Positions 9,995 through 45,818 of a DNA stretch of 64,000 nucleotides are shown one piece after another (the first letter of the stretch is position 1; every line of letters begins with the position of its first letter). The stretch lies in the NCBI GenBank assembly GCA_046598345.1, contig JBKJIT010000001.1:108251-172250 (forward strand), given 5' to 3'. The notes under the pieces were generated by a model. That model ran no database searches. It saw only the letters and a list, made by a program, of their open reading frames with translations, and was not told where the DNA came from. The stretch comes from Minisyncoccia bacterium (GTDB lineage Bacteria; Patescibacteriota; Minisyncoccia; Phycocordibacterales; UBA918). The position numbers and the translations under genes are program-made.

Positions 9995-10007
9995 AGGAAC
10001 ACCAATA

Positions 10008-10040: not shown

Positions 10041-10055
10041 TGTTATACTTTCAAT

Positions 10056-28061: not shown

Positions 28062-29533
28062 TTAGTTGGTAGTTGTAACCTTATCTTTTAAATCTCCCTT
28101 TTCATAATATTCCTTTTCGCCTCCTATCGCATCGAAATCTGCTTTTTTGCCAGTTATGATACTTTCTGCTGCTGCAATTCCCATTTCGAGTGAATGATCC
28201 TGATTGTTGTAACGAAAACGGCCGGGACGCCCAATGTAAAACAGATTGCTGAAACGATCGAGAAAACCTTTGATGTGTCCGAGATTGGATTCGTAGTGTA
28301 GATCATAAATGGGGTACACGTCTTTTTGAGTGATGCGGTAATAAGTTCTCACCTCCTCTTTTTTCAAGAAGCCGGCTTTTTCGAGATGGGGAAGTATGTA
28401 CGCAAACAGTTCATCCTTATTCATAGACCAGACTGGCTCATCTTCAAAGCAGAAAAACTCAAGGAAGAGGGATGTTGTACCAGAGGGAGACATCCATGAA
28501 CTAAAATTTTTCATTTCTGACATTCGTGCGACAGGCACTTCTTTCTTGGGGAAATATATCCATTGATCTCTGGTCACGGATTCTTTGTTGAGCGTAATGA
28601 AGAGATATACTTGGTGCCGATATCGTAAATTTTTGAGGGCAGGCGGAACTTCTGGTGGAAGGGTAGTATCGAGAAGGTTTACAAAATTCACGATTGGTAT
28701 TGATTCAACTAGGTACTCACATTCAATCTCCAGCTCTTCTTCGCCGGCTCGTGCAATTACTTTGGTAATGCGGTTTTCTTCTATGCATATCTTTTGCACT
28801 TCGACATTGAACATAAAGAATACCCCTTTTGTTCCAGATTTTCTTGTATCGTCCGGTAAATAAGTCCCGTACCCTTACGAGGATAATAAAAGGTATCCAC
28901 AAGTGATTTTGGCTTATTTCGTGCCTTACTGGAGAATATTTTCAGTATCATGTCCTGCGCAATAGTACGGAGACTCAATCCTTTAATGCGTTGACCGGCC
29001 CAGTCGGGGTGAATGGTTGATGCGGGAATACCCCAGATCTTTTCTGTGTAGTTAATCATGTTGAACTCCCCCAATGTCCGACCAAAATTAGCGATCACAT
29101 AATCTTCAAAGTTTTTAATTTTCTTACCGAGAATGCCGTACTGCATCTTTGCTAGTGCGTAGTCGGTAAGGATGCGTATTGATGTAAAGAGTCCGATATT
29201 GCGCAGTGCCTGAATAGGATTCACCGGATAGTCATAAAATTTGCCATCAATGAACTGGCGAGTGTACCGATTAACGGTTATCCAGTCATCGTGGAGCACT
29301 TCTTCGATCATTTCGTACAGGTATGGATTTTTTGAAAAAAACCGATGGGGACCGTTGTCTGTATAAAAGGTTCCAACGTCTTCTTTGAAAGCATACGTTT
29401 TTGAAAGGCCTCCAACTTCAGAAGTCTTTTCCAGGACTAGGAATTTTTTACCAGCCTTTGCAAGCTCAAGTGCAGCGGCCATGCCTGCGGGCCCAGCGCC
29501 TATTATGAGCGTTTCTATCTTAATCCTGCGCAT
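28062..29533 (-). pseudogene. FAD-dependent oxidoreductase (amine-oxidase / phytoene-desaturase-like) split by a frameshift into two 250-aa ORFs (28781..29533 N-terminal half, 28062..28814 C-terminal half)
   Basis: The upstream ORF has the FAD dinucleotide motif IIGAGPAGMAAALELAKAG. The downstream ORF reads as the C-terminal substrate/FAD domain. The two ORFs overlap by 34 nt in different frames. Confidence 0.55.
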
Positions 29534-30289: not shown

Positions 30290-31126
30290 ATGAAAATTGG
30301 ATTCATCGGACAAGGGTACGTTGGTAAAAACATAGCGAACGATTTTGAAGCACGTGGCCATGAAGTAGTCAGGTACTCTCTGGAGCCGGAATATATTTTG
30401 AATATGGATAAAATCCAGACGTGCGATATTGTCTTTATTGCTGTTCCCACACCCACAACCCCGGATGGTTTTGATTATTCAATAATTGAACAATCACTTC
30501 CGCTATGTAGGGAAGGGGCCAAAGTTGTTCTCAAATCAACACTGCTTCCAGGTACAACGGAAAAACTACAAAAGCTGTTTCCCCAGCTTTGCATACTTTT
30601 TTCGCCTGAATTTTTGTGTGAAGCGACGGCTGCTCATGATGCGGCAAACCCAGTCTTCAATATCATTGGGAGTCCTACGAACACAGCACTTCACGAAGAT
30701 GCTGCCAAAGAAATTATGAGCATTCTTCCTAAAGCTCAGCATTCCTTTCAAACGACCGCAACAGCAGCGGAGCTTTTTAAATATGTACACAACATTCAGG
30801 GGTATATGCGGGTCATTCTTTCGAACCTTTTTTATGACACCGCCACAACACTTGGCGTTGAGTGGGAAGACGTCCGTCGTATGATGGATGTGGACCCTAT
30901 GATGTCGCCGTACTACAACTCCCCGCTCCATAAGAGTGGTCGTGGCGCAGGAGGGCATTGTTTTATTAAAGACATGGCAGCATTTAGGATGCTCTATGAA
31001 AAGGCACTCCCTGAGGATGCTCTCGGTATTGAGGTATTCAAAGCCCTTGAAAGTAAGAACCTGGAGCTTTTAGCCTCCACTAACAAGGACCAGGGTCTTG
31101 TGAACGGGGTGTATGGACAAGATTAA
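30290..31126 (+). CDS. UDP-glucose/GDP-mannose dehydrogenase-family protein, short form (278 aa) lacking the C-terminal UDP-binding domain
   Basis: N-terminal MKIGFIGQGYVG Rossmann. Catalytic-Cys motif GGHCFIKD near residue 230. The ORF stops about 45 aa later, whereas full-length Ugd is about 430 aa. Confidence 0.65.
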   Translation: MKIGFIGQGYVGKNIANDFEARGHEVVRYSLEPEYILNMDKIQTCDIVFIAVPTPTTPDGFDYSIIEQSLPLCREGAKVVLKSTLLPGTTEKLQKLFPQLCILFSPEFLCEATAAHDAANPVFNIIGSPTNTALHEDAAKEIMSILPKAQHSFQTTATAAELFKYVHNIQGYMRVILSNLFYDTATTLGVEWEDVRRMMDVDPMMSPYYNSPLHKSGRGAGGHCFIKDMAAFRMLYEKALPEDALGIEVFKALESKNLELLASTNKDQGLVNGVYGQD

Positions 31127-31193
31127 GATTGAATAGAATATTTTCTGAAAGGAATGTGTTATAAAGAGAGTGCTATTAAAATAAAATTAACTC

Positions 31194-31778
31194 ATGCCGA
31201 AGATTGATTGGGAGGTGAATACAGTAAAAAATATATTTACAAGGAATGACCTATGGCCATGGAAGGATGACGAACTAGATTCTGTGTTGGATGTTGCTTG
31301 TGGTTTGTCATTTAAATCCAAGTTTATCCCTGCGAAAATTCGAGTGGGAGTTGATATATTTGAAAAATATTTCGATCATATTGAAACTGATGTGCCTTAT
31401 GTCGTTATAAAACACGACGTTCGTCGACTGAGTGAAATTTTTCTGCCTAAAAGCTTTGATCTCGTCATTGCTTTGGATATCATTGAACATCTCGAAAAGG
31501 AGGAGTCACTTGCTATGATCAGAGAGTGTGAGAAAATTGCTCGTAAGGCAGTAATTCTTGAAACACCGAAAGGATATGTACCACAAAATCTTGATATACA
31601 GGGTCATGGAGGTCATGAATTCCAGACACACCGATGCGGATGGGAAAAGGAAGAGTTAGAATCTTTGGGGTATAAGGTAATAGTAAGAGATTATGTCATG
31701 AGCAATGTTCAAAGACATACGGAACTAGATGTGGATCCTCATATCCAACTCATGGACGGCATTAAATTTATTCAATGA
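31194..31778 (+). CDS. class I SAM-dependent methyltransferase
   Basis: Motif I VLDVACG and post-I LVIALDIIEHL. Confidence 0.6.
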   Translation: MPKIDWEVNTVKNIFTRNDLWPWKDDELDSVLDVACGLSFKSKFIPAKIRVGVDIFEKYFDHIETDVPYVVIKHDVRRLSEIFLPKSFDLVIALDIIEHLEKEESLAMIRECEKIARKAVILETPKGYVPQNLDIQGHGGHEFQTHRCGWEKEELESLGYKVIVRDYVMSNVQRHTELDVDPHIQLMDGIKFIQ

Positions 31779-31782
31779 ACTC

Positions 31783-32736
31783 ATGGCACGAATTCTGATT
31801 ACTGGATCTAAGGGCGTAATAGGCACCTTTCTCACTGATTTCTTAACAAAGAGGGGGCATAGTATTTTCGGTATTGATCTTACTCATGGATTTGGAGAGG
31901 TGGGGTGGGAACATGCTATGGCAAAGAATGAGTTTACTTATTCTCGCTGTGATGTGAGCGACTTTCGACAACTCGAGCGTGTCTTTGAAGAAGCGGGGCC
32001 TTTTGATTTTGTGTATCACACCGCAGCAGAATTTGGTAGGTGGAATGGGGAAGATTTTTATGAACAACTCTGGCGAAGTAACGCAATTGGTACTAAAAAT
32101 ATTATTCGCCTTCAAGAAAAATTGAAGTTTAAATTAATTCACTTTTCTTCTTCGGAAGTATATGGAGATTTCCCTGGAATTATGGAGGAATCGGTAATGG
32201 ATACTGTAGAAATTAAACAAATGAATGATTACGCATTAACTAAATGGGTTAATGAACAACAAATTCGAAATTCTGTAATTAAAAATCAAACGGATAGTGT
32301 TATCGTCCGACTTTTCAACACGTATGGTCCGGGAGAGTGGTATCACCCGTACCGCAGCGTAAATTGTAAATTTACCTACCATGCTCTTCATGGTCTTCCG
32401 GTCACCGTCTATAAGAACCATACACGCACCTCTACCTACCTTGAGGATACATGTAATACACTCTCAAACATCGTTGATAACTTTATACCCAATTCAGTTT
32501 ATAATATTGGAGGCCGAGAATTGCATAACATGGAAACTCTAGTGGAGCTGATCTGGAAATACACTGGTGCTAATGTTGACCTCATAACTTACGCGGAATC
32601 AGAGATCCTTACAACAAAAGACAAAGTAGTGGACGTAAGCAAATCTGAACGTGATCTGCAGCATAAGAACAGTGTTACCTTAGAAGAAGGTGTCAAAAGG
32701 ACGGTGGACTGGATGCGTACGTTTTATGGCATGTAG
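31783..32736 (+). CDS. NAD-dependent epimerase/dehydratase
   Basis: MARILITGSKGVIG Rossmann. SDR fold. Track ORF 31729 trimmed to the first ATG after the upstream stop. Confidence 0.7.
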   Translation: MARILITGSKGVIGTFLTDFLTKRGHSIFGIDLTHGFGEVGWEHAMAKNEFTYSRCDVSDFRQLERVFEEAGPFDFVYHTAAEFGRWNGEDFYEQLWRSNAIGTKNIIRLQEKLKFKLIHFSSSEVYGDFPGIMEESVMDTVEIKQMNDYALTKWVNEQQIRNSVIKNQTDSVIVRLFNTYGPGEWYHPYRSVNCKFTYHALHGLPVTVYKNHTRTSTYLEDTCNTLSNIVDNFIPNSVYNIGGRELHNMETLVELIWKYTGANVDLITYAESEILTTKDKVVDVSKSERDLQHKNSVTLEEGVKRTVDWMRTFYGM

Positions 32737-32763
32737 CTATTAAAAGGTGGTTCGTCGCAATCT

Positions 32764-33885
32764 ATGCATATAGTTTACGTTGCTAACAGTCGCTTCCCAA
32801 GTGAACGGGCGCATATGACGCAGATAGTGCATATGTGTAATGCATTTGCTGAGAATGGGCACGAGGTCACTCTACTTGTAACTGATCGAAAGACTAATAT
32901 TGTTGAAGATCCGGAGACTTTTTTTGGTGTTCCCCTTACATTTTCGATAGAGCGGATCCAAGTTCCAGATATTGCAGGCCGCGCAAAAGACATACCTATA
33001 TTTCTGAGACCTCTTGCGTTCATGATTCAACGTCTCGTATTTACATTAAGGGCAAAAAAATACATAGAAAGAGAATCGTTTGATCTTATTTATGGACGCG
33101 ACGAATGGATTTTGTATTCCTTGAGCATACTTCAGAGTGTAAAAATAATTTGGGAATCTCACGAAGCGAAATATTCATTTCCTGCTCGTCTGCTTATTCC
33201 TCATGTTAAAAAACTAGTAGTTATCTCTGAGGGTATTTATACATTTTATATCAGTAAAGGAGTCTCAAACCAGAAAATGATTGTTGCGCATGATGCGGTG
33301 GATGCCCGTTTTTTTGACCCGCATATACCAAAAGATGAAGCCCGAAAAATGCTTGGCATTGCCACGACCAAGCCCGTCGTTATGTACATCGGAGGACTCG
33401 AGTCCTGGAAGGGAGTCGAAACACTTCTGAAAGCAGGGGATCAGTCAGATGCCTTTGAAGTCCATATTGTGGGTGGTAAAGAAAACGAGCTTTTGAAATA
33501 TCGTAAAATATATCCAAACGCTCACTTTCATGGCCCTTGGTTCTATCGAGAACTTCCAAAAATCCAACAGGCAGCTGATATTCTCGTGATTCCAAATACT
33601 GCAAAAGTGGCTCTCTCTGCAGAATATACATCACCCCTCAAGCTTTTTACATACATGACTTCAGGAAAGCCTATTGTTGCATCAAAAATTCCAAGTATTG
33701 CAAACATCCTGTCGGAGGAAGAAGTTTTTTTCTTTGAGCCTGATGATCCTGAGTCACTCTTTACAATCATACTTTCAGCAATCCAAAACAGCAGAGATGC
33801 TAAGGAGAGAACGGAGAGAGCCTACAGCAAGAGTTTCAAGTATACTTGGATACGACGTGCGGAAGAAATTACTAAATCCCTATAG
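32764..33885 (+). CDS. glycosyltransferase family 4
   Basis: GT-B architecture with VMYIGGLESWKG and C-terminal lysine/glutamate motifs. Confidence 0.7.
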   Translation: MHIVYVANSRFPSERAHMTQIVHMCNAFAENGHEVTLLVTDRKTNIVEDPETFFGVPLTFSIERIQVPDIAGRAKDIPIFLRPLAFMIQRLVFTLRAKKYIERESFDLIYGRDEWILYSLSILQSVKIIWESHEAKYSFPARLLIPHVKKLVVISEGIYTFYISKGVSNQKMIVAHDAVDARFFDPHIPKDEARKMLGIATTKPVVMYIGGLESWKGVETLLKAGDQSDAFEVHIVGGKENELLKYRKIYPNAHFHGPWFYRELPKIQQAADILVIPNTAKVALSAEYTSPLKLFTYMTSGKPIVASKIPSIANILSEEEVFFFEPDDPESLFTIILSAIQNSRDAKERTERAYSKSFKYTWIRRAEEITKSL

Positions 33886-34702
33886 TATGTTTCATATAAA
33901 TCTTGTCTTTAAAATACTCCCCAGACTTTCTGAGCGGTTAAGTAACTCGTTTTTTCAAACTGTGCGTCTGTACCTAAAATTTTTACTATTTTTAATCTCT
34001 AAGAAACTGCATAAGAAAGCTTCTCCATGGAGATTCGAATTTTATTTTGAAGGCAAAGAACTTAGAATAAAATTATTTGAAGGCAGTCCTGACATCGCTG
34101 CACTTGCTGAAATCTTTTTAGACGGAGAGTACGATTGGGATAGTATTAAAGAACCACAGATTATTATTGATCTTGGAGCACATACAGGAAACACTGCACT
34201 CTATTTTCACGCAAAATATCCGAATGCAGTAATTTATGCAGTTGAAGCATCGCCTCAAACCTTTTCGCATCTATTAGAAAATGTGCATGGTATAGCACAA
34301 ATAAAGCCCATCTTCGGAGCCATCTCAGACAGGAACGGAAAGATAACTTTTTATGAGTCGGAGAGTAGTTTAGGAAGTTCAATTTATAAACGAGCTAACA
34401 GTGTCGGGGTCGAGGTTCCCACATTCACATTAGACAGTCTCTTTTTGAAAGAAGGCTTAGGAAGAGCGGATTTTATAAAAATTGATATTGAAGGGGGCGA
34501 AGGGGATATCTTTCTCAGGGATTTACCTGAGAAATACGCTGAATGGTATATAGTCGAGGTTCACTCAGACCTTATGACAGAGCGTGTTGATTTCATACAG
34601 AGATTTTTCGCGAAATATGAGACCTTAACTAAATCTCTTGCCACCAAAGATCGCTATTTGCTGTATGCAAAGGCGACAATAACGAATGAAATAACCATGT
34701 AA
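33886..34702 (+). CDS. FkbM-family methyltransferase
   Basis: IIIDLGAHTGNTALYF and FIKIDIEGGEGDIF are FkbM-domain hallmarks. Start set at the ATG immediately after the upstream stop. Confidence 0.7.
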
Positions 34703-34737
34703 CTTTAGAGGAATGGGGTGTGTTATTATTGGAACCC

Positions 34738-35784
34738 ATGCAGCATATACTTATTACAGGAGGGGCAGGTTTTATCGGAGTGAACGCTACTCGGCGTTTT
34801 TTAAGAGACGGGTGGAAGGTTACTATTTTTGACAATTTGTCTCGAAAAGGCTCTGACATTAACTTAAGGCATTTGGAAATGGAAAATCACAAAAATCTTT
34901 TTGTGATGATTAATGATATTCGTACCGACAGAGAGGCGCTGAATCAGATTGCATCAGAATGTGATGTAATCCTACATCTTGCTGCACAGGTTGCGGTCAC
35001 CACCTCGATCATCGACCCTCAAACTGACTTCGACATTAACATATTAGGTACATTCAATGTCCTTGAAGCAGCGCGCAAAAGTGAGCGCAAGCCGCTCGTG
35101 ATTTATGCGTCAACGAACAAGGTCTTTGGAGCACTTGAAAATTATCCAGTGCGAGAAATGGAGACACGCTTTGAGTTTGAGCACGACCACTTCCATACGC
35201 ATGGAGTTCCTGGTGATCATCCACTCGATTTCCATTCTCCCTATGGCTGTTCGAAAGGCGCAGCTGATCAGTACGTGGTCGATTATGCACGCATCTATGG
35301 TCTAAACACTGTAGTTTTTCGGCAATCATGCATTTATGGTACCAATCAATTTGGAGTTGAAGATCAGGGATGGTTAGCATGGTTTGCTATTGCAACCATG
35401 TTGGGTAGACCTCTTACCCTCTACGGAACGGGCAAGCAGGTTCGTGACGCGCTCTTTGTCGATGATCTTGTTGATTTGTATGTCCATGCAGTTACAAATC
35501 GTGTTTCCATGAATGGAAATGCCTATGTGGTAGGTGGAGGTCCGAACAATACGCTCTCGCTACTAGAACTTTTGGATATGATTGAGAAAAAACTTCAAAA
35601 GAGGCCAGTTACAACTCTCGCTGCGATTCGCGCCGGCGATCAACCTATATTTGTGGCGGATGTACGAGCGCTTGAAAAAGATTTTAATTGGAAACCGCAG
35701 ATCACTGTGCACGAAGGTGTAGATCGCATGATTGAATGGATGCACGAACATGAGGCTGATATTAGAAAACTTTTTCAGGCTTAA
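34738..35784 (+). CDS. NAD-dependent epimerase/dehydratase (CDP-paratose 2-epimerase-like)
   Basis: ILITGGAGFIGVNA. SDR catalytic YGCSK. Confidence 0.8.
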   Translation: MQHILITGGAGFIGVNATRRFLRDGWKVTIFDNLSRKGSDINLRHLEMENHKNLFVMINDIRTDREALNQIASECDVILHLAAQVAVTTSIIDPQTDFDINILGTFNVLEAARKSERKPLVIYASTNKVFGALENYPVREMETRFEFEHDHFHTHGVPGDHPLDFHSPYGCSKGAADQYVVDYARIYGLNTVVFRQSCIYGTNQFGVEDQGWLAWFAIATMLGRPLTLYGTGKQVRDALFVDDLVDLYVHAVTNRVSMNGNAYVVGGGPNNTLSLLELLDMIEKKLQKRPVTTLAAIRAGDQPIFVADVRALEKDFNWKPQITVHEGVDRMIEWMHEHEADIRKLFQA

Positions 35785-35799
35785 TTTTCTCCCTAACGC

Positions 35800-36972
35800 A
35801 TGAACGTACTCCTGAGCTCGTCAACTATTGATCGTTCAAATGGGTATGGAAATATAACATATGAATTTTCTCGTTCTCTTGTTGAAAAGGGAGTCAGTGT
35901 AACTCTTCTGCTTCCTCGAGATACAAGGGACGAAATACCTGTGATTTCGGGTCTCAAAATTGAGAGAATATTACCACCGTACCTATTTCAGGCAATTCGC
36001 CCCAAGCTGTTTGAATACCTCCTATGGAAGTATGACAATAAGAGTAAATTTGATATTGTACATTCTCTTTTTGAAACCCCGTATGCTCCACTCATGGCCC
36101 GTGAGTCAAGGCGCCGTAAGATACCATTTGTAATGGGGGCACAGGGAACCTACGGAGTAAAACCCCTTACTGAGCAGCCTGAACGCTTCCTTCTGAAATA
36201 CGCGTATAGGACGGCAAAAACAATTATTGTACCGAGCGCGTATACTAAAAAGACTATCCTGAAGGAATCTGGTGAAAATTACGACATCACAGTGATTCAT
36301 AACGGTGTTGACTTTGACCGCTTCAACACCGCTACGGAAACCGGTGTAGAAATCAGAAAGCAATATCCGGGCAAGCAACTATTACTTACCGTTGGTCAGC
36401 TTAAAAATAGAAAGGGACAAGACATGGTGATAAAGGCACTTCCGGCAATTTTGAAACAGCACCCCGATACGATGTATCTTCTCGTGGGTGACGATGGTTG
36501 GAATGGGTATCTAAATCGTCTTGCGCAAGAGGTGGGTGTCTCTGACCATGTGGTATTTGTGGGCTCGGTAGCTGGGAAAGATGTACCAAAATACTTTCAT
36601 GGATGTGATGTCTATGTGCACACTGCACGCATTTCGGGAAAATATTATTTCGAGGGTTTTGGCATCGTGTATCTTGAGGCAGCTGCGTGTGGCAAGCCAT
36701 CCGTTGGTACCGACGCAGGAGGTATTACAGATGCCCTTCTTCATGAAAAAACTGGTTTTGTTGCAGAAAATGAGAATATTGAACAAGTAGCAGATTACAT
36801 AAATAAACTTCTGAGTGATCAGTACTTGCGTAAAAAGATGGGAAACGAGGCACAAGAGTATGCACGTCTTCATAGGTGGAGTCACATCACAGAGCAATAC
36901 CTAAAAGTATATGAAGATATTCTTAAAAAGGATCCTGTTCGAAAGACTATGAGTTATGGTAATTTAGTATAG
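35800..36972 (+). CDS. glycosyltransferase family 4
   Basis: EGFGIVYLEAAACGKPSVGTDAGGITDALLHEKTGFV. Confidence 0.8.
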   Translation: MNVLLSSSTIDRSNGYGNITYEFSRSLVEKGVSVTLLLPRDTRDEIPVISGLKIERILPPYLFQAIRPKLFEYLLWKYDNKSKFDIVHSLFETPYAPLMARESRRRKIPFVMGAQGTYGVKPLTEQPERFLLKYAYRTAKTIIVPSAYTKKTILKESGENYDITVIHNGVDFDRFNTATETGVEIRKQYPGKQLLLTVGQLKNRKGQDMVIKALPAILKQHPDTMYLLVGDDGWNGYLNRLAQEVGVSDHVVFVGSVAGKDVPKYFHGCDVYVHTARISGKYYFEGFGIVYLEAAACGKPSVGTDAGGITDALLHEKTGFVAENENIEQVADYINKLLSDQYLRKKMGNEAQEYARLHRWSHITEQYLKVYEDILKKDPVRKTMSYGNLV

Positions 36973-36975
36973 TCT

Positions 36976-37638
36976 ATGAGAATTCCCGAAAATATTAAAC
37001 GTTCACTTAGGCCTCTGTATGTCCCGATTACTAGTTGGTATTACAATACTTTCAAAGCTCCAAAGCGATATCATCATCTTTATGACACGATTCGTGCAAT
37101 TTCTGCAAAGAGTATTCTCGAAGTAGGGGTATGGAATGGCGGACGTGCGGTGAGAATGATCGAAGTTGCCAAAGAGCAGACTTCTCAGGTTTCGTACTTC
37201 GGTTATGATCTTTTCGAAGACTTAGGAGAAGTTGGGTACATCGCAGAGCTTTCAAAACGACCACCTACAGAACGTGAAGTTGCTGCACTTCTAAAAGCAA
37301 CTGGAGCAGAAGTCAAGCTTTTTCGTGGAAATACACTGGAGACGCTCTGTGTCTCAGTCGAGACACTTCCAAAGATTGACTTCGTCTTTATTGATGGGGG
37401 ACACAGTGTAAAAACGATTGCGAGTGACTGGAGCTATATAGAAAAAGTATTGCATAATAACTCAGTGGTTATTTTTGATGATTACTGGCGCAATCGCAGC
37501 GATGCCGGCTGTAAAGCCATTGTTGATGCTATCGATCGGTCTCAATACAATGTGGAGATCTTACCGGAAATAGATTCTTTTAATAATCCCGATTTCGGCA
37601 GATTAGAAATTAGTTTTGCTAAAGTAACCAAAAAATAG
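36976..37638 (+). CDS. class I SAM-dependent O-methyltransferase (TylF/MycF / Methyltransf_24-like)
   Basis: ILEVGVWNGGRAV and FVFIDGGHSVKTIASD / VVIFDDY motifs. Confidence 0.65.
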   Translation: MRIPENIKRSLRPLYVPITSWYYNTFKAPKRYHHLYDTIRAISAKSILEVGVWNGGRAVRMIEVAKEQTSQVSYFGYDLFEDLGEVGYIAELSKRPPTEREVAALLKATGAEVKLFRGNTLETLCVSVETLPKIDFVFIDGGHSVKTIASDWSYIEKVLHNNSVVIFDDYWRNRSDAGCKAIVDAIDRSQYNVEILPEIDSFNNPDFGRLEISFAKVTKK

Positions 37639-38385
37639 TTACGGTTTACGAATTACAAATTGGTCATTTTTCACCTCAAGTCTATTTTTCAAACCCTTCC
37701 TTTCCACGAATTCATACAATGCTTTCTGTACATCTGGGAGCCGATAATCGTCGCCACTAAGAATGCCGCCTGATTTTGTTTTCTCGTAGTATATCTTTAT
37801 ATCATTGAGCACATACTCGTAGTCATGATTGCCATCAATGTAGACAAAATCAAAATAGTTATCCGGGAAATGCACGGCTGCCTCTGTTGAGGTCTCACGG
37901 CGTATCTTTACTTTTTGGGTATTTATTTCATTTTGAAACATATTTATGACTTGCTTATATCGAGAATCTTGTGCTTCTTGAGTATATTTACCGATTTTCT
38001 TTTTATCAAAGTAGTTTTCCTTAGTGAAATAGAACCAGGGATCAATAAGTACAAGTTCTGATGGATTGCATATCTCATAGATACGTTTAGAAAAATCGCC
38101 TGTCCAAACCCCCACTTCGCAGCATTTTCCATTTTTAGGTACTCGCTTTAAGATGAAATCTCTGGGATAAGGTAAGAAGGAATTTATGTAACGGTATATT
38201 CCTCTGAAATATGGCTTAATGTAGGTTTTAATAAAGTGGTTTTCATTTGCATACGTGAGCAAAATTGCGCGCAATTTGTAATCATTGCGATATACCGCAT
38301 TGTTTTTGCTAGTTTTTTTGTCCATACATACATTATATATTATTATGTAAAGATTGAGTTTTCCATTGAAACAATTATGAATCAC
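37639..38385 (-). CDS. class I SAM-dependent methyltransferase (Methyltransf_24-like paralog); start possibly the internal Met (MDKKTS, about 38325)
   Basis: CCEVGVWTGDFS, FVYIDGNHDYEY, GGILSGDDY. Confidence 0.6.
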   Translation of the reverse strand: MIHNCFNGKLNLYIIIYNVCMDKKTSKNNAVYRNDYKLRAILLTYANENHFIKTYIKPYFRGIYRYINSFLPYPRDFILKRVPKNGKCCEVGVWTGDFSKRIYEICNPSELVLIDPWFYFTKENYFDKKKIGKYTQEAQDSRYKQVINMFQNEINTQKVKIRRETSTEAAVHFPDNYFDFVYIDGNHDYEYVLNDIKIYYEKTKSGGILSGDDYRLPDVQKALYEFVERKGLKNRLEVKNDQFVIRKP

Positions 38386-39354
38386 ATTTTCAAAAAATTA
38401 GGTTTAAGGATCCTACAACGGAAGCCGCATATGTACTCAAAGTCACTGATCTTTAATGTGCTAGGGATGCAAGTATATAGGACTGTAGTGTTTTATCTCT
38501 GGCGCGTACTACGAATACCAATACGCATTGATCCAAAATTTAAACCTCACCTCGAAAGCTTATTTGTAAACGGCTATATTGCGATTCCAAACTTCTTCGG
38601 ATCCAGCGAGTACAAAAAGATCTATGATGAATACTTCGCACTTCTGCCCCAGTTTGAAAAGAGCGGTAGTCCCGTTGATCTACCGCATGTTGACCGGATG
38701 GATATTTTGGATAACCGAGTTAGTGAGTTTTTCAGAAATTCTTTTTGTAGGAATGCTCTCATTCGTGGACTTGTAGCTGCGTATCTTAATCGTAATTTCA
38801 ATATGCCATATGAAGTTGATCTTACGCGCATATATCTTAAGAATCTTGAGGAAATGAAATTACCGCAAAACGGTGGCACTAACAATTGGCATTTCGATGC
38901 ACCGCTCCGTACGTTAAAGGCATTTTATTACGTAACTGATACTGCAAAGGAGAACGCTGCACTCCAATACTGTGTCGGTTCGAATAAGCGCAATACCCTA
39001 CGTCGTCTTTGGCTCGAATACAAATTGAGCATCCGATATGCTTATAATAAAAGAAATCCCAGCCATGGTGGAGAATACAAGGACGGCGAGCCGTGGGTAG
39101 TGCTTACCGATGCAGAAATGAAGGGCCATGATCTGAAGGAAATGTGTATGGAAGTTGAGGCAAATACCTTAGTCATTGTTGATATCGGTGGCTTTCATAA
39201 GCGCGGCGAATTCAGCTCAATTAAACCGCGAGATACCGTAGAACTTAACTTTCGTAACATTGATACCATTCGGAATGAACTCTATCCCATTGAAAGACAG
39301 TTTCGTAAGAAGTTACCCAAGTTTGACCATAAAGTCAGGACGAATGTTGCCTAG
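38377..39354 (+). CDS. putative 2OG-Fe(II) oxygenase of the phytanoyl-CoA dioxygenase (PhyH) family
   Basis: WHFDAP (His-x-Asp) and distal GFHKRGE His suggest the 2-His-1-carboxylate facial triad. Weak assignment. Confidence 0.45.
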   Translation: MNHIFKKLGLRILQRKPHMYSKSLIFNVLGMQVYRTVVFYLWRVLRIPIRIDPKFKPHLESLFVNGYIAIPNFFGSSEYKKIYDEYFALLPQFEKSGSPVDLPHVDRMDILDNRVSEFFRNSFCRNALIRGLVAAYLNRNFNMPYEVDLTRIYLKNLEEMKLPQNGGTNNWHFDAPLRTLKAFYYVTDTAKENAALQYCVGSNKRNTLRRLWLEYKLSIRYAYNKRNPSHGGEYKDGEPWVVLTDAEMKGHDLKEMCMEVEANTLVIVDIGGFHKRGEFSSIKPRDTVELNFRNIDTIRNELYPIERQFRKKLPKFDHKVRTNVA

Positions 39355-40149
39355 CCCGATTTCTTTTTTGATATCGGATTCATTTACGACTCCATCTTTT
39401 AAAGCTTTTTTCACAACGTCAAAGAAAAGGTTTTCAATCTGTCTATTAGGGTGGGGAGCATAATGTGTCGGGTACCTTCCTAGGAGCTTGTATATTGGCT
39501 CACGAGGAATGATACCTAGTATGGTCTTCATCTTATTTCGGGTGAAATCAATAGGTAGACCAGTCTTCCAGGGCTGAGTGAGTCTTCCTGTCATATGAAT
39601 CATTTTTGTTTCTTCCGTGTATTCATCGAGGTGATTCCAGATGCGGGGAAGCGGAGTGATTGATGTTTCTTTACGTAAGTCCATTAACTCCCGATATGTT
39701 AGGGCACGGTCATGAAGTGCAGCGAGGAAAGTCCGAATATTCCAATGTGTTAGTTTCGCACAATTAAGCAGCATCACACTCGTATCCCATGCATCTTTCT
39801 TAGGACATGCCGCTATTGCATGACCCTTTAGATCAAAAGAAAAAAGTTCCTCGATATTGGTGAGTGCAAAGATGTCTGGATCAATAACCACGGCAATTCC
39901 TTCGTACCCCATAAGTTCGGGCGTCATAAAGCGGGAAAGGGTAAAAGACTGCAAATCAGTGTTGGTATATATTCGCTCGTCACCCTCCACATACGTGTAT
40001 ACAGTACCTATAAAATTCTTGAAAATATCAATTTCATCCACGTTCATTATTTCAACATTGGATCCGGCCTTTGATTCGATGGCATACTTTGCTATACGAG
40101 CGCCAAAAAGCTGTTTATTGTTTGTTTGAATAAATACAGTAGGTTGCAT
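39313..40149 (-). CDS. GT-A fold glycosyltransferase, GT8-like
   Basis: DxD-like VVIDPDIF and C-terminal HMTGRLTQPW resembling the GT8 H-x-G-x-x-KPW motif. Confidence 0.45.
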   Translation of the reverse strand: MQPTVFIQTNNKQLFGARIAKYAIESKAGSNVEIMNVDEIDIFKNFIGTVYTYVEGDERIYTNTDLQSFTLSRFMTPELMGYEGIAVVIDPDIFALTNIEELFSFDLKGHAIAACPKKDAWDTSVMLLNCAKLTHWNIRTFLAALHDRALTYRELMDLRKETSITPLPRIWNHLDEYTEETKMIHMTGRLTQPWKTGLPIDFTRNKMKTILGIIPREPIYKLLGRYPTHYAPHPNRQIENLFFDVVKKALKDGVVNESDIKKEIGLGNIRPDFMVKLG

Positions 40150-41962: not shown

Positions 41963-42015
41963 ATTTCATGTATTATATATTAAACTTTCTAAAAGGAGGT
42001 TTGGTTAAAGAAAAT

Positions 42016-42975
42016 ATGGATATTGATGCATCTGCTAGGTCAAGGAAGGTTATACGTGAAGCGATTAATTCCCTCAAGGAATTTCAGAATCTCGATGAGA
42101 GATTTTGGAACGAGTTGTGTTCCCGTGTTCAGAATCGCAAGGGTAAGCTTGTGCTTACGGGAGTGGGGAAGTCAGGTTACATCGCTATGAAAGTTGCTGC
42201 CACACTCACAAGTCTTGGAAATTTTGCGACGTTTATACATCCTGTTGAAGCAATGCATGGAGATTCCGGTGGGGTAACTGAGGGGGATACGGTAATTGCT
42301 TTCTCGTATTCTGGAAACACAAAAGAACTGATTCAGTTTATGCGTCACATCAAGGAAAGAATGGAAGTGTCTTTGATTGGTGTTACAGGTGCGAGGGATT
42401 CACAACTCGGCAAACTTTCAGATATGGTGATCCTTATTACAATTCAGGAAGAGGGTAGTCCGTATAACCTTGCTCCTATGGCATCCACCACAGCAATGCT
42501 TGTTGCCGGGGATGCACTTGCAGCGGGTCTAACTTCTCCACAGACTTTCACAAAAAATGATTTCGCTCGTTATCACCCAAGTGGTACACTCGGCTTTTCA
42601 CTCACCTCAGTGAAAGAAAGAATGTTACCTCATACTCCTGACGATATGGTTGGTGAAGATACTGAACTGCAAGAAGTGTTACTCCATATGAGCAACATTG
42701 GAAAGGGGATAATTGGGGTCATTTCCCCGAATGGCGCACTTACGGGAGCAATAACCGATGGTGACATACGGAGATTCCTATGCACAAATATTTCAATCGA
42801 AGGTGCACATGCAAAAGATGCAATGAATGTGACGCCAAAGTATGTTCAGCATAACCACACACTTAAAGATGCACTTGAGATGATGGAATCTTTTAAGATC
42901 ACAAATGTCTTTGTTATCAACGAGGAAAGCATACCAATTGGCATCCTTCACATGCATGATATTTTAAGCTCATGA
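42016..42975 (+). CDS. kpsF: arabinose-5-phosphate isomerase (KpsF/GutQ family: SIS + tandem CBS)
   Basis: RBS AAAAGGAGG. SIS domain LVLTGVGKSGYIAMKVAATLTSLG. Two C-terminal CBS-like repeats. Confidence 0.75.
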   Translation: MDIDASARSRKVIREAINSLKEFQNLDERFWNELCSRVQNRKGKLVLTGVGKSGYIAMKVAATLTSLGNFATFIHPVEAMHGDSGGVTEGDTVIAFSYSGNTKELIQFMRHIKERMEVSLIGVTGARDSQLGKLSDMVILITIQEEGSPYNLAPMASTTAMLVAGDALAAGLTSPQTFTKNDFARYHPSGTLGFSLTSVKERMLPHTPDDMVGEDTELQEVLLHMSNIGKGIIGVISPNGALTGAITDGDIRRFLCTNISIEGAHAKDAMNVTPKYVQHNHTLKDALEMMESFKITNVFVINEESIPIGILHMHDILSS

Positions 42976-44441
42976 GAGAAGAGATAGATTTTAGTTACGC
43001 CCTCGAATTTTATAATCGATTGGAAGCTGTCCACATGGACAATCTCCCCCTCACGAAATATTTTGAATGTGAAGGGTCTGACTATTGGCAATTTTACAAA
43101 CAGAGGATTTTTGAAGAAATTAAGACTTTTAGTCGAACAAAGCACATAGTGCGACCAAGGGCGAATCGTTTTAGTAAGACGGTAGATTTTTGCGTGTATG
43201 TCGGGGTCGTTCTCTCAACTGTGTTTTCTTTAATGCGTAAAAGAAAGGCGCTAGTGTATGCAATTGATAAAGTAGACCCAGTGCACAAGAGTGATTTTAG
43301 GCTTTCTACCGTGTATGCATTTCTTAAGAGAGCACAGATATCTTATCTAGAAATCTTCCATACCGTGATAGGGGGTGCGACCATCAAGCATTTCTTTCAG
43401 CGAAGGCGAATTGTTACCTACCTCGAAGCAGCCGATCGTCTCTATCCCATAGCAGTATGGCTCAAGCTCCATAAGCCTCTCGAGCTGGCTGTAGTTACAA
43501 ATATAGCCCTAGAAAATTTTAGTGAAAGAGAAAGAGAATTCGCCATTACTCTCATACAAAAATATCTACGTCAAATCGATATTTCTCGTTTTAAAATTAT
43601 GTTTTTTTCCTTTCTTATGCGAAAAAGCAAATGCAAAATATTTCTTGCAATTGACGATGCTCGTTATTATTACGAACTCTTAAGAGCGGCAAAACTTGCC
43701 AAGGTTCCAAGCTATGCCTTCCAGCATGGACACTTTACGAAATACCATGTTGGATGGCTTAGATCTAATAATCAGTATGGCGAGTCGACCTATCCAGATC
43801 ATTTTTTAGTTTCGAGTGAATATTGGAAACAGGAACTAACTAGGTTGGGTGGGATTATGCCATCACATACTATTCTTGTCTCTGGAGACAAGACGCCTAC
43901 ACCAGACACTGCGTTTAGGGACATGCGTGAGGAAAGTAAGATACATATTCTTATCCCTTACGAAACAGCGTGCCCAAAGCATGAAGTTGCAGTGTATATA
44001 CGCAGCTTTCTGAGTATAAAAAATGTTCATGTGATATTTAAGCTTCGCCCAGATATGTCTACAGCTGAACAATTGAAGGAGTACGGCCTACAAGAATTAA
44101 AGGACTCACGGTTTGAGACCGCGGTAGATATTGGGGAATGTATAGAAAGAGTAGATATAGTTGCTGGAGTCTATTCAACATTTCTATATGACATGATTTT
44201 ATATAAGAAGCGAGTTGTTATCCTTGACACCTCATCTGATTATGGTGAGGGCATGTACGAAAACGGCTTGGCGGATCTTTTGAAGCGAGGGCGTGATCTT
44301 GAGACTTTTATATGGCAAATTAAAAAATTGCCGGACTCACTAATTGTGGAAAGAAAAACAAAATTATTAGCTAATGGAATTACACTGGAACAGACATTGA
44401 AAGATATAGTTGAAAAACATATTCATGACCGATTACTTTAA
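42972..44441 (+). CDS. hypothetical protein, possibly a capsule-synthesis (KpsS/KpsC-like) or TagF-like glycosyl/phosphotransferase
   Basis: 489 aa with no clear motif. Placed by synteny between kpsF and a kdsB-like gene. A QHGHF motif is present. Confidence 0.35.
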   Translation: MREEIDFSYALEFYNRLEAVHMDNLPLTKYFECEGSDYWQFYKQRIFEEIKTFSRTKHIVRPRANRFSKTVDFCVYVGVVLSTVFSLMRKRKALVYAIDKVDPVHKSDFRLSTVYAFLKRAQISYLEIFHTVIGGATIKHFFQRRRIVTYLEAADRLYPIAVWLKLHKPLELAVVTNIALENFSEREREFAITLIQKYLRQIDISRFKIMFFSFLMRKSKCKIFLAIDDARYYYELLRAAKLAKVPSYAFQHGHFTKYHVGWLRSNNQYGESTYPDHFLVSSEYWKQELTRLGGIMPSHTILVSGDKTPTPDTAFRDMREESKIHILIPYETACPKHEVAVYIRSFLSIKNVHVIFKLRPDMSTAEQLKEYGLQELKDSRFETAVDIGECIERVDIVAGVYSTFLYDMILYKKRVVILDTSSDYGEGMYENGLADLLKRGRDLETFIWQIKKLPDSLIVERKTKLLANGITLEQTLKDIVEKHIHDRLL

Positions 44442-44558: not shown

Positions 44559-45818
44559 TTACTTAGGACGATACATTTTGAACAAAATATAGAGCATAAA
44601 ACAATGCACAATATAGAAAATTAGAAGGGAGAAGACAGCGCCCCATATACCATATATAGGTACTAAGATAATGAGCGGTATAATCCGAATCACTGGTTTT
44701 GTAATGTTGAGTATGTACAATTCTTTTTTACTTCCGAGTGAGGTTAGTGCTTGTGTATAAAGGGTAAGAGGAATAGTGAAGAGTGTAAGAGAAAGTACTT
44801 GGGAATATCTCACTGCTTCTTGATATTCAGGAAAAAAATGGATAAAGAGAAATTCAGCGAATGTAATATAAGAAAGAATAAGGACGATGCTAATAAGAAA
44901 AGTAATAAACATTTTATGTGGAAGCGCATCCCTCAGTTCTTCATAGGTGCGTGTACTAAATTTCGGCAATATAAGTGAACGAATGATCTTTGAAGTACCA
45001 TGAAGTTGCCGTATCGGAGCGAGAGCAATGGCATAGATAGCGAGAGAGGTTGCTCCTAGAAGCTGAAAAATAATGACTTTATCAATATATGTAGAAAAGT
45101 TAGAGAATGAATCCATGAGACTCAAGTGTTTTCCCAAAGAAAGAGATTTGTTGTCTACAAATGCATTTTTGTCGATCTTCCTGACCAAGAGAAAATAACG
45201 AACTGAAGAAATAATCATATTTGAAAGAAAGAGAGTGAGCACAGCATAAATGACATCTTCAGTGAGATAGGCAACCAGGATGACACTAGTTGTGATAGCA
45301 ATATTTTTGTATATGTTATCGTTAGCAATCTTAGTAAATTGTTTTTTGCCGTTAAAATATGATCCGTAGAGTGAGGATGCATATAAGAGAGGCGAGCAGA
45401 GCCCGATAATTAGGAGCGAGTATCCGAGAACATCATTATTCTTGTAAAGGTAGTATGATCCCCCCAGAAGTGTTAACAACGATACGGGAATGGTCCATTT
45501 AAGTTTAAGAAGGAAACCTTTTATTAGAGTACGCTCAGATCCACGGGCCACTGCTTGCGCTACTGAAATGTCCAATCCAGAGAGAGTAAATGCAGCAATC
45601 ATACTGGCGATTGAAAGAATATACGCATAAAATCCGTACTCAGCTGGATTAAAGATTCGTACCAGGCAAAGGGTAAGTACAAATCCAGAGATACCGGCAA
45701 AGATTTGACCAATAGTAAGTACCATAGTTCCTTTAGCCAAATACCGGACATCTGTCTTAAGGTAAGGCTGTAATCTACTTGCAAGACGATTAAGAATATA
45801 AATTGATCTTTTTTTCAT
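44559..45818 (-). CDS. Wzx-like oligosaccharide flippase (MOP/polysaccharide biosynthesis protein family)
   Basis: 419 aa, 12 to 14 TM. N-terminal LAKGTMVLTIGQIFAGISGF typical of Wzx/PST family. Confidence 0.7.
   Translation of the reverse strand: MKKRSIYILNRLASRLQPYLKTDVRYLAKGTMVLTIGQIFAGISGFVLTLCLVRIFNPAEYGFYAYILSIASMIAAFTLSGLDISVAQAVARGSERTLIKGFLLKLKWTIPVSLLTLLGGSYYLYKNNDVLGYSLLIIGLCSPLLYASSLYGSYFNGKKQFTKIANDNIYKNIAITTSVILVAYLTEDVIYAVLTLFLSNMIISSVRYFLLVRKIDKNAFVDNKSLSLGKHLSLMDSFSNFSTYIDKVIIFQLLGATSLAIYAIALAPIRQLHGTSKIIRSLILPKFSTRTYEELRDALPHKMFITFLISIVLILSYITFAEFLFIHFFPEYQEAVRYSQVLSLTLFTIPLTLYTQALTSLGSKKELYILNITKPVIRIIPLIILVPIYGIWGAVFSLLIFYIVHCFMLYILFKMYRPK

Follow-up and report, generated by a model that had tools for sequence, protein, structure and literature searches.

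A methyltransferase-rich sugar-tailoring block with a PhyH-type oxygenase in an envelope glycan locus of an ultrasmall CPR bacterium

The conversion of a C-H bond into a methoxy group by two enzymes is known from cephamycin, where CmcI and CmcJ combine a 2-oxoglutarate (2OG)-dependent hydroxylase with a Methyltransf_24-related, metal-dependent methyltransferase (MT). On envelope glycans, KdoO is the Fe/2OG Kdo 3-hydroxylase of Burkholderia and Yersinia LPS; it belongs to the LPS core synthesis of diderms and is not known to have an MT partner. PhyH-type Fe/2OG oxygenases also tailor antibiotic sugars, with SnoN and SnoK in nogalamycin, HygX and EvdO2 in orthoester formation and KanJ in the deamination of kanamycin B. 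In enzymes with an HxD...H metal site hydroxylation is the default outcome, and halogenases carry HxA/G in place of HxD. Sugar O-methylation is represented by the Mg-dependent MycF, SpnH, NovP and MeT1, the last of which is the mycobacterial methylmannose-polysaccharide 1-O-methyltransferase.

The window analysed here, the whole stretch of 64 kb, comes from an ultrasmall CPR/Patescibacteria bacterium with Saccharibacteria-like relatives. As proposed in the preliminary description, positions 31194-39354 encode four MTs and an Fe/2OG oxygenase within 8 kb; two SDR and two GT4 glycosyltransferase genes lie among them. A Pfam scan and fold evidence confirm this arrangement and all five family calls (Methyltransf_25/11, Methyltransf_21/FkbM, Methyltransf_24 twice, PhyH), and the segment is indeed one of sugar tailoring. 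The setting is a cell-envelope glycan locus and not an antibiotic cluster, and the block is best read as the part of this locus in which sugars are made and decorated. This Wzx-type locus of ~40 kb, with murD/murC on one side and murB on the other, encodes many GT4s, Wzx, a Wzy_C/TPR protein, a GtrA-like protein, a PMT_2-like membrane transferase, AsnB-like amidotransferases, a sulfotransferase, PAPS synthase, KdsB and KpsF. The architecture ending in Wzy_C/TPR and murB is repeated in two related loci, L003 and L005, and sister loci are likewise rich in MTs (six in 20 kb of L002, five in 21 kb of L005). No further sugar-type MT was found by Pfam scan in the rest of the window, where the sole other methylase match is a TP_methylase (7433-8149). 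Transmembrane segments are predicted for none of the tailoring enzymes of the block, as would be expected of enzymes that work on the cytoplasmic side of the membrane with its supply of SAM and 2OG. Two modules can be told apart, A (30290-34702) and B (34720-40149).

Module A starts just outside the block with a short protein of the UDP-glucose/GDP-mannose dehydrogenase family (30290..31126, plus strand, 278 aa). It has the Pfam UDPG_MGDP_dh_N and central domains, its PDB matches are UDP-sugar 6-dehydrogenases of which just the first ~300 residues are covered, and the C-terminal UDP-binding domain is absent. The retained motifs GGHCFIKD and ELFKYVHN are presumably the catalytic Cys and Lys/Asn motifs of the UDP-sugar dehydrogenase family. 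In L002 this dehydrogenase-like protein is fused with an MT (542 aa) and in L003 with an SDR (658 aa), and these fusions support the module as a unit. The class I SAM MT that follows (31194..31778, plus strand, 194 aa) scores barely above the cut-offs of Methyltransf_25 (27.6 bits against 27) and Methyltransf_11 (25.0 against 21.2); it carries the SAM motif VLDVACG, and searches of PDB and NCBIfam gave no informative match. SDR1 (31783..32736, plus strand) is an extended SDR and a putative UDP-xylose synthase of the UDP-glucuronate decarboxylase type, with 315 bits against PDB 8w3u/9ar1 (Mth373). Mth373 has been assigned as a UDP-xylose synthase with the motifs EYGRW, SAE and YAITK (PMC12820599), and the matching active-site motifs of SDR1 are EFGRW, SSE and YALTK; the truncated dehydrogenase-like partner of SDR1 is a point of difference. 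The module is completed by GT4a (32764..33885, plus strand; Glycos_transf_1 and Glyco_trans_1_4), which has orthologues at 33-40% identity in L005, L009, L011, L012 and L025, and by an FkbM-family SAM MT (33887..34702, plus strand, 271 aa; Methyltransf_21 61.8 bits; TIGR01444 fkbM_fam 86.8 against a cut-off of 37.7).

Four ORF starts in the block require trimming, and separate gene calls on the identical Logan contig support two of the four revisions. The most likely start of the FkbM MT is 33887, right behind the GT4 stop at 33885 (ORF as listed 33674-34702, plus strand), and that of SDR1 is 31783 (listed 31729-32736). The minus-strand Methyltransf_24 protein was revised to 37639-38325 (listed 37639-38385) and the oxygenase to 38377-39354 (listed 38236-39354).

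Module B opens with SDR2 (34720..35784, plus strand), which is CDP-tyvelose-2-epimerase-like according to its PDB matches (312 bits against 9rl0, TaTyvE; 291 bits against 1orr). TaTyvE epimerises CDP-glucose (PMC13098431, PMC7851689). In contrast to the TyvE system, genes for a 3,6-dideoxyhexose pathway are lacking, and SDR2 therefore more likely epimerises an ordinary NDP-hexose. Orthologues of SDR2 adjoin the oxygenase in L006/L007 (55% identity) and in L008/L023 (39%), as do orthologues of GT4b (35800..36972, plus strand; Glycos_transf_1 146.5 bits) in L024 (64%) and in L008/L023 (42.5%). At the far end of the module, a GT8-like glycosyltransferase gene (39313..40149, minus strand, 278 aa) converges on the oxygenase gene with a 42-nt overlap. 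The protein scores just below the Glyco_transf_8 cut-off (23.8 bits against 24.3), its L008 orthologue lies above it (31.5 bits), and a DPD (DxD-type) motif is seen. Orthologues at 44-56% identity lie near the oxygenase in L003, L008/23, L009, L010, L012/26 and L014, directly adjoining it in L003, L009, L010 and L014. Hydroxylation followed by O-methylation would require a deoxy carbon, but module B has no evident 4,6-dehydratase or 3-dehydrase.

The oxygenase (38377..39354, plus strand, 325 aa) scores 21.3 bits against a Pfam PhyH cut-off of 22 and falls about 0.3-0.7 bits short across scans. This sub-threshold call is rescued by three agreeing lines of evidence: 32 of the 36 family members match Pfam PhyH (best E 6.4e-14), the weak matches of the family profile in the PDB (best E 1.6e-4) are mostly PhyH-type Fe/2OG dioxygenases, and the AF2 model (pLDDT 85.1, pTM 0.84) fits the PhyH fold. 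The metal-binding HxD...H suggested earlier is kept, with H172-x-D174...H274...R285 invariant in an alignment of 36 relatives at 20-45% identity; the retained Asp of the triad argues against halogenation. The top Foldseek matches (SnoN, DhiD, PrhA, SnoK, HygX, KanJ and EvdO2; E 2.5e-10 to 5e-8) are PhyH-type enzymes, many of them acting on sugars of glycosylated antibiotics. With SnoN/SnoK, HygX, EvdO2 and KanJ the oxygenase shares the double-stranded beta-helix, the HxD...H and an Arg 11 residues past the distal His, and its substrate, like theirs, is probably a carbohydrate. As TM-scores are only 0.45-0.6 at ~15% identity, the chemistry of these matches is not transferable, and unlike the antibiotic-tailoring enzymes the oxygenase resides in Wzx-type glycan loci with an MT nearby. 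Among the nearest solved relatives, reactions range from hydroxylation and epimerisation to carbocyclisation, orthoester formation and oxidative deamination. KdoO would resemble it as an Fe/2OG oxygenase acting on an envelope glycan sugar, and Kdo-pathway genes lie near the oxygenase of the window and several orthologues, but PhyH is the only Pfam match and no KdoO-family relationship is detectable in the sequence. The N-terminus forms a conserved, moderately hydrophobic helical region of ~50 residues. The close relatives form a small, hitherto uncharacterised family of 19 clusters among 5.8 billion proteins, and all seven loci from named genomes belong to CPR.

Two MTs of the Methyltransf_24 family precede the oxygenase. 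MT24a (36976..37638, plus strand, 220 aa; 49.7 bits, cut-off 26.3) keeps the residues that are invariant in the family alignment (E/G/G, D, IDGxH and D), with DDY at the site that is almost always GDD/GHD. MT24b (37639..38325, minus strand, 228 aa; 53.4 bits) is TylF-like, with a sub-threshold TylF match (17.4 against 23) which MT24a does not have, and is divergent from the oxygenase with a 51-nt spacer between them. Its class I SAM motif is E-x-G-x-x-x-G, and its conserved acidic residues (IDGNH ... GDDY) presumably coincide with the metal-binding positions of TylF-family enzymes. Its AF2 model (pLDDT 87.4) finds MeT1, MycF, SpnH and NovP as top Foldseek matches (E 2.5e-9 to 4e-8), which like MT24b belong to a sugar-tailoring setting. 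Identity to these enzymes is only 15-20%, and the presumed substrate is a CPR envelope glycan, as opposed to macrolide sugars or polymethylated polysaccharides of the cytoplasm. The likeness to antibiotic deoxysugar pathways and mycobacterial methylated glycans noted in the preliminary description thus holds for the enzyme structures but not for the setting.

In every related CPR locus showing both flanks, the oxygenase lies within ~2.5 kb of a SAM MT gene; five loci ending too near the oxygenase gene were left out of this scoring. The linked MT is an orthologue of MT24a at 46-50% identity, beside or one gene off the oxygenase, in L002, L003, L009 and L010, an orthologue of MT24b at 41-49% identity in L005, L006/7, L008/23, L011 and L012, and a class I MT in L025. 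The two genes may diverge, run in the same direction with a 3-nt gap, or converge and overlap, but adjacency is kept. In other glycan loci, more distant relatives of the oxygenase (21-25% identity) have an MT of a different family directly alongside. In L006/L007, which come from one genome, GT4, TyvE-like SDR, oxygenase and MT24b form a stand-alone four-gene cassette, whose called neighbours include housekeeping genes (e.g. guaA-like, polA-like) and no other sugar-pathway gene, as would suit a self-contained unit for adding a sugar and tailoring it. Kdo-pathway genes adjoin the oxygenase in several loci, pointing to a substrate other than a hexose.

The abutting stops of MT24a (TAG, 37636-37638, plus strand) and MT24b (TTA at 37639-41, i.e. 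TAA on the minus strand) were confirmed, and with the common Pfam family they had suggested a recent local duplication or inversion. This origin is now highly improbable: identity between the two proteins is just 21% over 127 residues, no inverted DNA repeat was found at the pair, and each is closer (41-50%) to its own distinct set of orthologues, with related CPR loci carrying one or the other and never both. Judged by these identities, MT24a and MT24b are old paralogues, and the window seems to join two arrangements that are alternatives elsewhere, GT4b followed by MT24a and MT24b facing the oxygenase. Equally far-fetched is a glycosylated secondary-metabolite cluster, despite the likeness of the tailoring enzymes to enzymes from macrolide, aminoglycoside and anthracycline sugar pathways, as no PKS, NRPS, cyclase, resistance or aglycone genes were found across the 64 kb, the locus has Wzx-type machinery bracketed by mur genes with an architecture that recurs in other loci, and the hosts have reduced CPR genomes. 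It is also improbable, if less so, that the PhyH-like protein is catalytically dead or acts on a lipid, protein or metabolite, with its position being incidental. The sub-threshold Pfam score and P0173, a more distant PhyH relative next to an amidohydrolase with no glycan-pathway genes around, would be in keeping with this, but the catalytic residues are invariant and P0173, a partial-coverage relative, is the exception among family members: all full-length members examined are in glycan loci.

Two further readings, each unlikely but deserving more weight, concern the chemistry. The oxygenase and its MT could tailor a 2-keto-3-deoxy ulosonic acid (Kdo or nonulosonic acid) instead of a hexose, for example by hydroxylation of the C3 methylene, as a functional analogue of KdoO, and subsequent O-methylation; the CH2 of a 3-deoxy sugar offers an Fe/2OG hydroxylase a natural site of attack. 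KdsB (280.9 bits, cut-off 193; TIGR00466 208 against 155) and KpsF/KdsD (233 bits, cut-off 203.7) are both encoded in the window, the next gene downstream of the oxygenase is KdsB-like in L010 (64% identity) and L002 (33%), a KdsC-like phosphatase gene is immediately upstream in L024, and KpsF is 3 kb away in L008/L023. In loci that also have NeuB, distant family members lie between an MT and a gene of Capsule_synth, the Pfam family that includes the KpsC/KpsS Kdo transferases. No ulosonic-acid gene occurs within 10 kb of the L006/L007 cassette, however, about half of the CPR loci have none in the visible stretch, the window ORFs that were scanned include neither KdsA nor NeuB, and the oxygenase shows no detectable sequence likeness to the KdoO family. 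Alternatively, the radical formed on the glycan could lead to something other than a hydroxyl for methylation. The outcome might be a SnoN-like C-H epimerisation, a KanJ-like oxidative deamination that leaves a ketone, or oxidative O-demethylation; with the MT acting first, it might be an EvdO/HygX-like ring closure in which an O-methyl or hydroxyl pair gives a methylene-acetal or orthoester. Enzymes of this kind lead the Foldseek matches, the strict oxygenase-MT pairing is also compatible with MT-first chemistry and module B has no obvious deoxy-sugar pathway; against this, the likeness is at fold level only, and hydroxylation is the usual result with an HxD...H site.

With a probability of about 0.6, we therefore favour a two-module envelope-glycan core in which C-H tailoring by the oxygenase and O-methylation by the partner MT fall on the same sugar residue. 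Module A would make, transfer and methylate one residue. In module B, SDR2 would supply a C2-epimerised hexose that is transferred before a sugar is tailored. The soluble, cytoplasmic oxygenase would use Fe(II), 2OG and O2 to abstract hydrogen from a sugar C-H, in the simplest form leading to hydroxylation, and the Mg-dependent TylF-like MT would then methylate the tailored residue, presumably at oxygen and not at nitrogen or carbon. This is the two-enzyme logic of CmcI/CmcJ, by analogy only, as their substrate is a beta-lactam. Most likely, then, the pair links oxidative tailoring at a C-H bond with O-methylation on a sugar of the surface glycan, and the end product would be a methoxy-decorated, methyl-rich surface glycan.

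As scans of the remaining ORFs show, the block at 31194-39354 is part of a glycan locus that extends over some 40 kb, from about 12.1 to 53.8 kb, with murD/murC (3.5-6.4 kb) on one side and murB (54.2 kb) on the other. The sugar genes of this locus include at least eight GT4s, several SDRs, WecB, KdsB and KpsF/KdsD, and they are accompanied by two AsnB-like amidotransferases, an ATP-grasp protein, two polysaccharide deacetylases and two membrane proteins that are GtrA-like and PMT_2-like. The locus also encodes a Wzx flippase (44559-45818) and a Wzy_C+TPR membrane protein with 11 predicted transmembrane segments (51609-53843), and it is of the Wzx/Wzy envelope glycan type; an initiating phosphoglycosyl transferase was not among the genes recognised in the window. 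The Wzy_C/TPR-murB ending is common to the window and to L003 and L005, two of the related loci (L002-L026) that carry relatives of the oxygenase of the block. The G+C content at 28-50 kb is 0.36-0.43 as against 0.45-0.50 in the flanks; lower values are usual in variable glycan islands, and the low-G+C centre would fit an island that varies or has been exchanged horizontally. As a sulfotransferase (23436-24278, +) and a bifunctional ATP-sulfurylase/APS kinase (49675-51321, +) share the locus, the glycan is probably sulfated. As far as enzyme types go, the preliminary description was right to compare the block with the tailoring of deoxysugars in antibiotics and with the methylated glycans of mycobacteria. 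An antibiotic cluster in place of an envelope glycan is unlikely, polyketide, non-ribosomal peptide and aglycone genes being absent from the ORFs scanned. Two further features were recorded in the window: a VirD4/TraG-like type IV coupling ATPase of 669 aa (9957-11966, +), which has a DUF4015 glycoside-hydrolase-like gene on one side and the beginning of the glycan locus on the other, and an FAD-dependent oxidoreductase (UDP-galactopyranose mutase/amine oxidase-like; 28062-29533, -) which a frameshift after ...LEQKGY splits into two overlapping 250-aa ORFs, so that either the gene is a pseudogene or the assembly is in error.

Four SAM methyltransferases (MTs) and a PhyH-like oxygenase had been read from the sequence within the block, interleaved with SDRs and GT4s, and the ORF list and a Pfam scan bear this inventory out. 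On the forward strand follow a class I MT (31194-31778; Methyltransf_25 27.6 against a cut-off of 27, Methyltransf_11 25.0 against 21.2), an Epimerase-family SDR (SDR1, first listed as 31729-32736), a GT4 of the Glycos_transf_1 family (32764-33885), an FkbM MT (first listed as 33674-34702), a second Epimerase-family SDR (SDR2, 34720-35784), a further GT4 (GT4b, 35800-36972; Glycos_transf_1, 146.5 bits) and the Methyltransf_24 protein MT24a (36976-37638; 49.7 bits against 26.3). The second Methyltransf_24 protein, MT24b, is on the reverse strand (first listed as 37639-38385; 53.4 against 26.3), and the oxygenase is again on the forward strand (first listed as 38236-39354; PhyH 21.3 against 22). 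The FkbM MT exceeds the cut-offs of both models of its family, Methyltransf_21 (61.8 bits against 22.7) and TIGR01444 (86.8 against 37.7). Four of the ORF starts have to be trimmed, to 33887 for the FkbM MT, 31783 for SDR1, 38325 for MT24b and 38377 for the oxygenase; the last two coincide with starts called independently on a Logan contig of identical sequence and leave the two genes divergent with 51 nt between them. No transmembrane segment is predicted in the tailoring enzymes, which are soluble proteins. MT24a, MT24b, the oxygenase and a GT8-like protein (39313-40149) are not covered by any NCBIfam model, and single-sequence PDB searches with the oxygenase, MT24a, the GT8-like protein, the FkbM MT and the class I MT gave no useful match. 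Promoter and terminator signals at 30-42 kb were no higher than shuffle expectation, and a tRNA-Ile was the sole Rfam match.

The oxygenase, a protein of 325 aa, narrowly misses the gathering cut-off of Pfam PhyH (PF05721; 21.3-21.7 bits against 22), a family matched at E<=0.01 by 32 of the 36 relatives in our family alignment, with a best value of 6.4e-14. Among the residues invariant in this alignment, which spans 20-45% identity, are H172, D174 and H274, so that the HxD...H metal triad proposed earlier is conserved, as well as R285, which is 11 residues past the distal histidine. Human PhyH presumably has the same spacing (His264/Arg275), and an arginine about 11 residues past the distal histidine is what we take to bind the C5 carboxylate of 2OG in PhyH-type dioxygenases. 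The AlphaFold (AF2) model (pLDDT 85.1, pTM 0.84) has a predicted double-stranded beta-helix like that of solved PhyH-type members; Foldseek matched it with probability 1.00 and E values of 2.5e-10 to 1e-8 to SnoN, DhiD, PrhA, HygX, KanJ and FtmOx1, and matches including SnoK and EvdO2 span 2.5e-10 to 5e-8 with TM scores of 0.45-0.6. Several of these act on sugars of antibiotics: SnoN and SnoK are the nogalamycin sugar epimerase and carbocyclase, HygX and EvdO2 form orthoesters, and KanJ is the kanamycin B dioxygenase. In the model comparison, carbohydrate-tailoring enzymes are over-represented among the nearest solved neighbours, at a likeness too distant for the reaction to be transferred. 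A profile built from 17 close homologues gave DhiD as its best PDB match (E 1.6e-4), with weaker ones that are mostly PhyH-type (among the weak matches AusE, OkaE, EctD, EasH, SptF, PrhA and PHYHD1, besides DhiD itself). Because of the invariant HxD...H and arginine, the confident model and the structural matches, we accept the protein as a predicted catalytically competent PhyH-type Fe(II)/2OG enzyme. Membership of the KdoO family was not found, PhyH being the only Pfam match at E<=0.01. An N-terminal membrane anchor was rejected because the hydropathy peaks at 1.27 in a 19-residue stretch, below the usual threshold; the N-terminal helices are conserved, moderately hydrophobic and at most amphipathic.

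Close relatives of this enzyme are rare. It was matched by just 19 clusters among 5.8 billion proteins, and in a representative library of 1.84 billion proteins the 17-homologue profile found 1,397 relatives at E<=1e-3, of which 505 reach 1e-10 and 63 reach 1e-30, with only about five representatives in the close clade. Relatives from named genomes all belong to CPR/Patescibacteria: Saccharibacteria (four), Parcubacteria, Paceibacterota and "Patescibacteria group". These seven, together with synteny, are the basis for assigning the window to CPR.

A SAM MT adjoins the oxygenase or sits within about 2.5 kb of it in every CPR locus with sufficient flank, a count which leaves out L004, L013, L014, L024 and L026, whose ends are too near the oxygenase; four more loci came from a metagenome scan with a second oxygenase alignment. 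The arrangement of the pair varies. An MT24a-type gene is immediately 5' of the oxygenase in L002 and separated from it by one gene in L003, L009 and L010, while an MT24b-type gene is convergent and overlapping in L005, co-directional at a gap of 3 nt in L006/L007, divergent in L008/L023 and the window, and about 2 kb away in L011 and L012. In L025 a class I MT of 322 aa with a Cys-rich N-terminal segment (5988-6956, +) takes the position that MT24b has in L011 and L012, an apparent non-orthologous replacement of the partner. Oxygenase relatives of only 21-25% identity, found in unrelated glycan loci with NeuB, aminotransferase, Wzx and Capsule_synth genes, are directly flanked by MTs of the Methyltransf_23/11/25 type; this wider evidence consists of three independent loci, the word-indexed search with the 36-sequence alignment having reached few distant relatives. 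That MT adjacency outlasts changes both in orientation and in MT family argues for a functional coupling of oxygenase and MT. An oxygenase that is dead or irrelevant to the glycan is unlikely, its catalytic residues being invariant and the full-length family members with an inspected neighbourhood all lying within glycan loci.

In L006/L007 a GT4, a TyvE-like SDR (55% identical to SDR2), the oxygenase and MT24b occur together, and since the called neighbours, housekeeping genes among them, include no further sugar-pathway gene, this set defines a minimal cassette. The GT8-like gene is near the oxygenase in six locus types, and its orthologue in L008 exceeds the Pfam GT8 cut-off. A 489-aa soluble protein (42972-44441, +) also travels with the oxygenase and is conserved at 26-32% identity beside oxygenase and Wzx in L003, L009, L010, L012 and L014. 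It has no Pfam or NCBIfam family and one hydrophobic segment only, on which ground a Wzy polymerase was rejected; a GT-B enzyme that has diverged strongly is a possibility, with Glyco_transf_4 at E 0.07-0.08 only. As L002 (six MTs in 20 kb) and L005 (five in 21 kb) match the density of the window (four in 8 kb), MT density appears to be a trait of the lineage and not a peculiarity of the window. Near the oxygenase, sister CPR loci encode a protein of the Methyltransf_13/14 type (L002 7660-8901; L003 5526-6728), an architecture we take to be that of TylCIII-type NDP-hexose C-methyltransferases, which suggests C-methyl (branched-chain) sugars in some relatives; the gene is absent from the window.

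The stop codons of the two Methyltransf_24 genes, TAG at 37636-38 and, on the opposite strand, TAA at 37639-41, directly abut, as had been described. The duplication or inversion proposed as their origin did not hold: pairwise alignment gave 21% identity over 127 residues, and the junction lacks an inverted DNA repeat. Searches of all fetched loci by tblastn and HMM placed MT24a-type orthologues (46-50% identical) in L002, L003, L009 and L010 and MT24b-type orthologues (41-49%) in L005, L006/L007, L008/L023, L011 and L012, with both types together in the window alone. Given the low identity, the missing repeat and the two separate orthologue groups, the sequences indicate old paralogues which abut here by chance, and a recent duplication is unlikely. 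Both proteins are above the Methyltransf_24 cut-off; that of TylF (PF05711) is not reached by MT24b (a weak 17.4 against 23), MT24a has no TylF match in the Pfam scan, and precomputed PF05711 matches exist on nine MT24b homologues. In an alignment of Methyltransf_24 proteins that includes MT24a, E70, G72, G76, D159, D164, H167 and D175 show no variation and G191 and D193 hardly any; the SAM motif E-x-G-x-x-x-G and IDGxH are kept in both window proteins, and the near-invariant GDD/GHD position reads GDDY or DDY. By analogy with MycF, D164, D192 and D193 are candidate metal ligands. The AF2 model of MT24b (pLDDT 87.4) has a predicted fold nearest to sugar O-methyltransferases, the best Foldseek matches being Mycobacterium hassiacum MeT1, MycF (mycinamicin 3''-O-MT, with a structure containing Mg), SpnH (spinosyn rhamnose 4'-O-MT) and NovP (a novobiocin pathway O-MT). 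We take all four to be metal-dependent sugar O-methyltransferases, MeT1 presumably being the 1-O-methyltransferase of methylmannose polysaccharide.

Full-length similarity makes SDR2 a CDP-tyvelose 2-epimerase-like enzyme, with 312 bits (9rl0) and 291 bits (1orr) to solved epimerases over residues 8-342 and a far lower 134 bits to the next SDR class; the Thermodesulfatator member of these epimerases turns CDP-glucose into CDP-mannose (PMC13098431, PMC7851689). SDR1 scores 315 bits, with matching sugar-binding motifs, against Mth373, which has been assigned as a UDP-xylose synthase (PMC12820599). Directly upstream of the block is a mini UDP-sugar 6-dehydrogenase-family protein of 278 aa (30290-31126, +), conserved across CPR loci, in which the catalytic Cys motif GGHCFIKD is kept and the C-terminal UDP-binding domain is missing. 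Its fusion partner is an MT in L002 (1164-2792) and a UXS-like SDR in L003 (2312-4288), and these fusions link it with the class I MT and with SDR1 in a single pathway (module A).

For the neighbouring module B (34720-40149) we infer steps by SDR2, GT4b, the oxygenase and a Methyltransf_24 enzyme. SDR2 would supply a C2-epimerised NDP-hexose, which GT4b would transfer; the oxygenase would oxidise a sugar C-H, with a hydroxyl as the simplest product, and the Methyltransf_24 enzyme would then O-methylate the oxidised residue, a step that two different MTs in the window could serve. We put the probability that oxygenase and MT jointly tailor one glycan residue of this envelope polymer at roughly 0.6, while the specific sequence of hydroxylation followed by methylation is a tentative proposal, somewhat short of an even chance. 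One serious alternative concerns the chemistry, which may instead be of the kind known from the structures nearest to the oxygenase model: epimerisation, deamination, demethylation or the closure of an acetal or orthoester. Equally to be taken seriously is a Kdo-like or nonulosonic acid as the substrate. KdsB or KdsC genes adjoin the oxygenase in L002 (11043-11786), L010 (10995-11738) and L024 (1420-2055), the phosphatase of L024 being KdsC-like and below its NCBIfam cut-offs; KpsF/KdsD (41968-42975, +) and KdsB (48850-49602, +) of the window itself are above theirs, and the Capsule_synth and NeuB genes beside distant relatives point the same way. The window showed no KdsA, and to our knowledge CPR bacteria are not expected to make LPS.

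Because all components fall in known superfamilies, nothing in the block is categorically new. Our literature searches found no characterised PhyH enzyme in polysaccharide loci and nothing pertinent on CPR glycan or Kdo chemistry; nor did they find a description of a PhyH-type oxygenase family within Wzx-type envelope glycan loci, of its obligate pairing with a methyltransferase, or of a PhyH oxygenase alongside sulfation and Kdo-activation genes in CPR. It is conceivable, if rather unlikely, that the protein founds an Fe/2OG family dedicated to surface-glycan tailoring, obligately MT-paired and installing methoxy or oxidatively cyclised methyl groups. It would then act on sugar carbons that lack activation, perhaps at the 3-deoxy position of Kdo-like acids, and the family would have about 500 representatives at E<=1e-10, with a tiny CPR clade. 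If true, the envelope polymer of a CPR epibiont would be unusually methylated, sulfated and Kdo-containing.

CPR/Patescibacteria live attached to host cells, and we know of almost nothing on their surface glycans. In a genetic study, EPS genes were important for epibiotic growth (PMC10633639). From the locus one would expect a polymer with heavy methylation, probable sulfation and amidation, and a Kdo-like sugar. The four-gene cassette is compact and portable. The only Fe/2OG enzymes we know of in the tailoring of envelope polysaccharides are KdoO and the lipid A enzyme LpxO; the oxygenase family would bring C-H oxidation to this repertoire and could yield new enzymes for the C-H functionalisation of carbohydrates.
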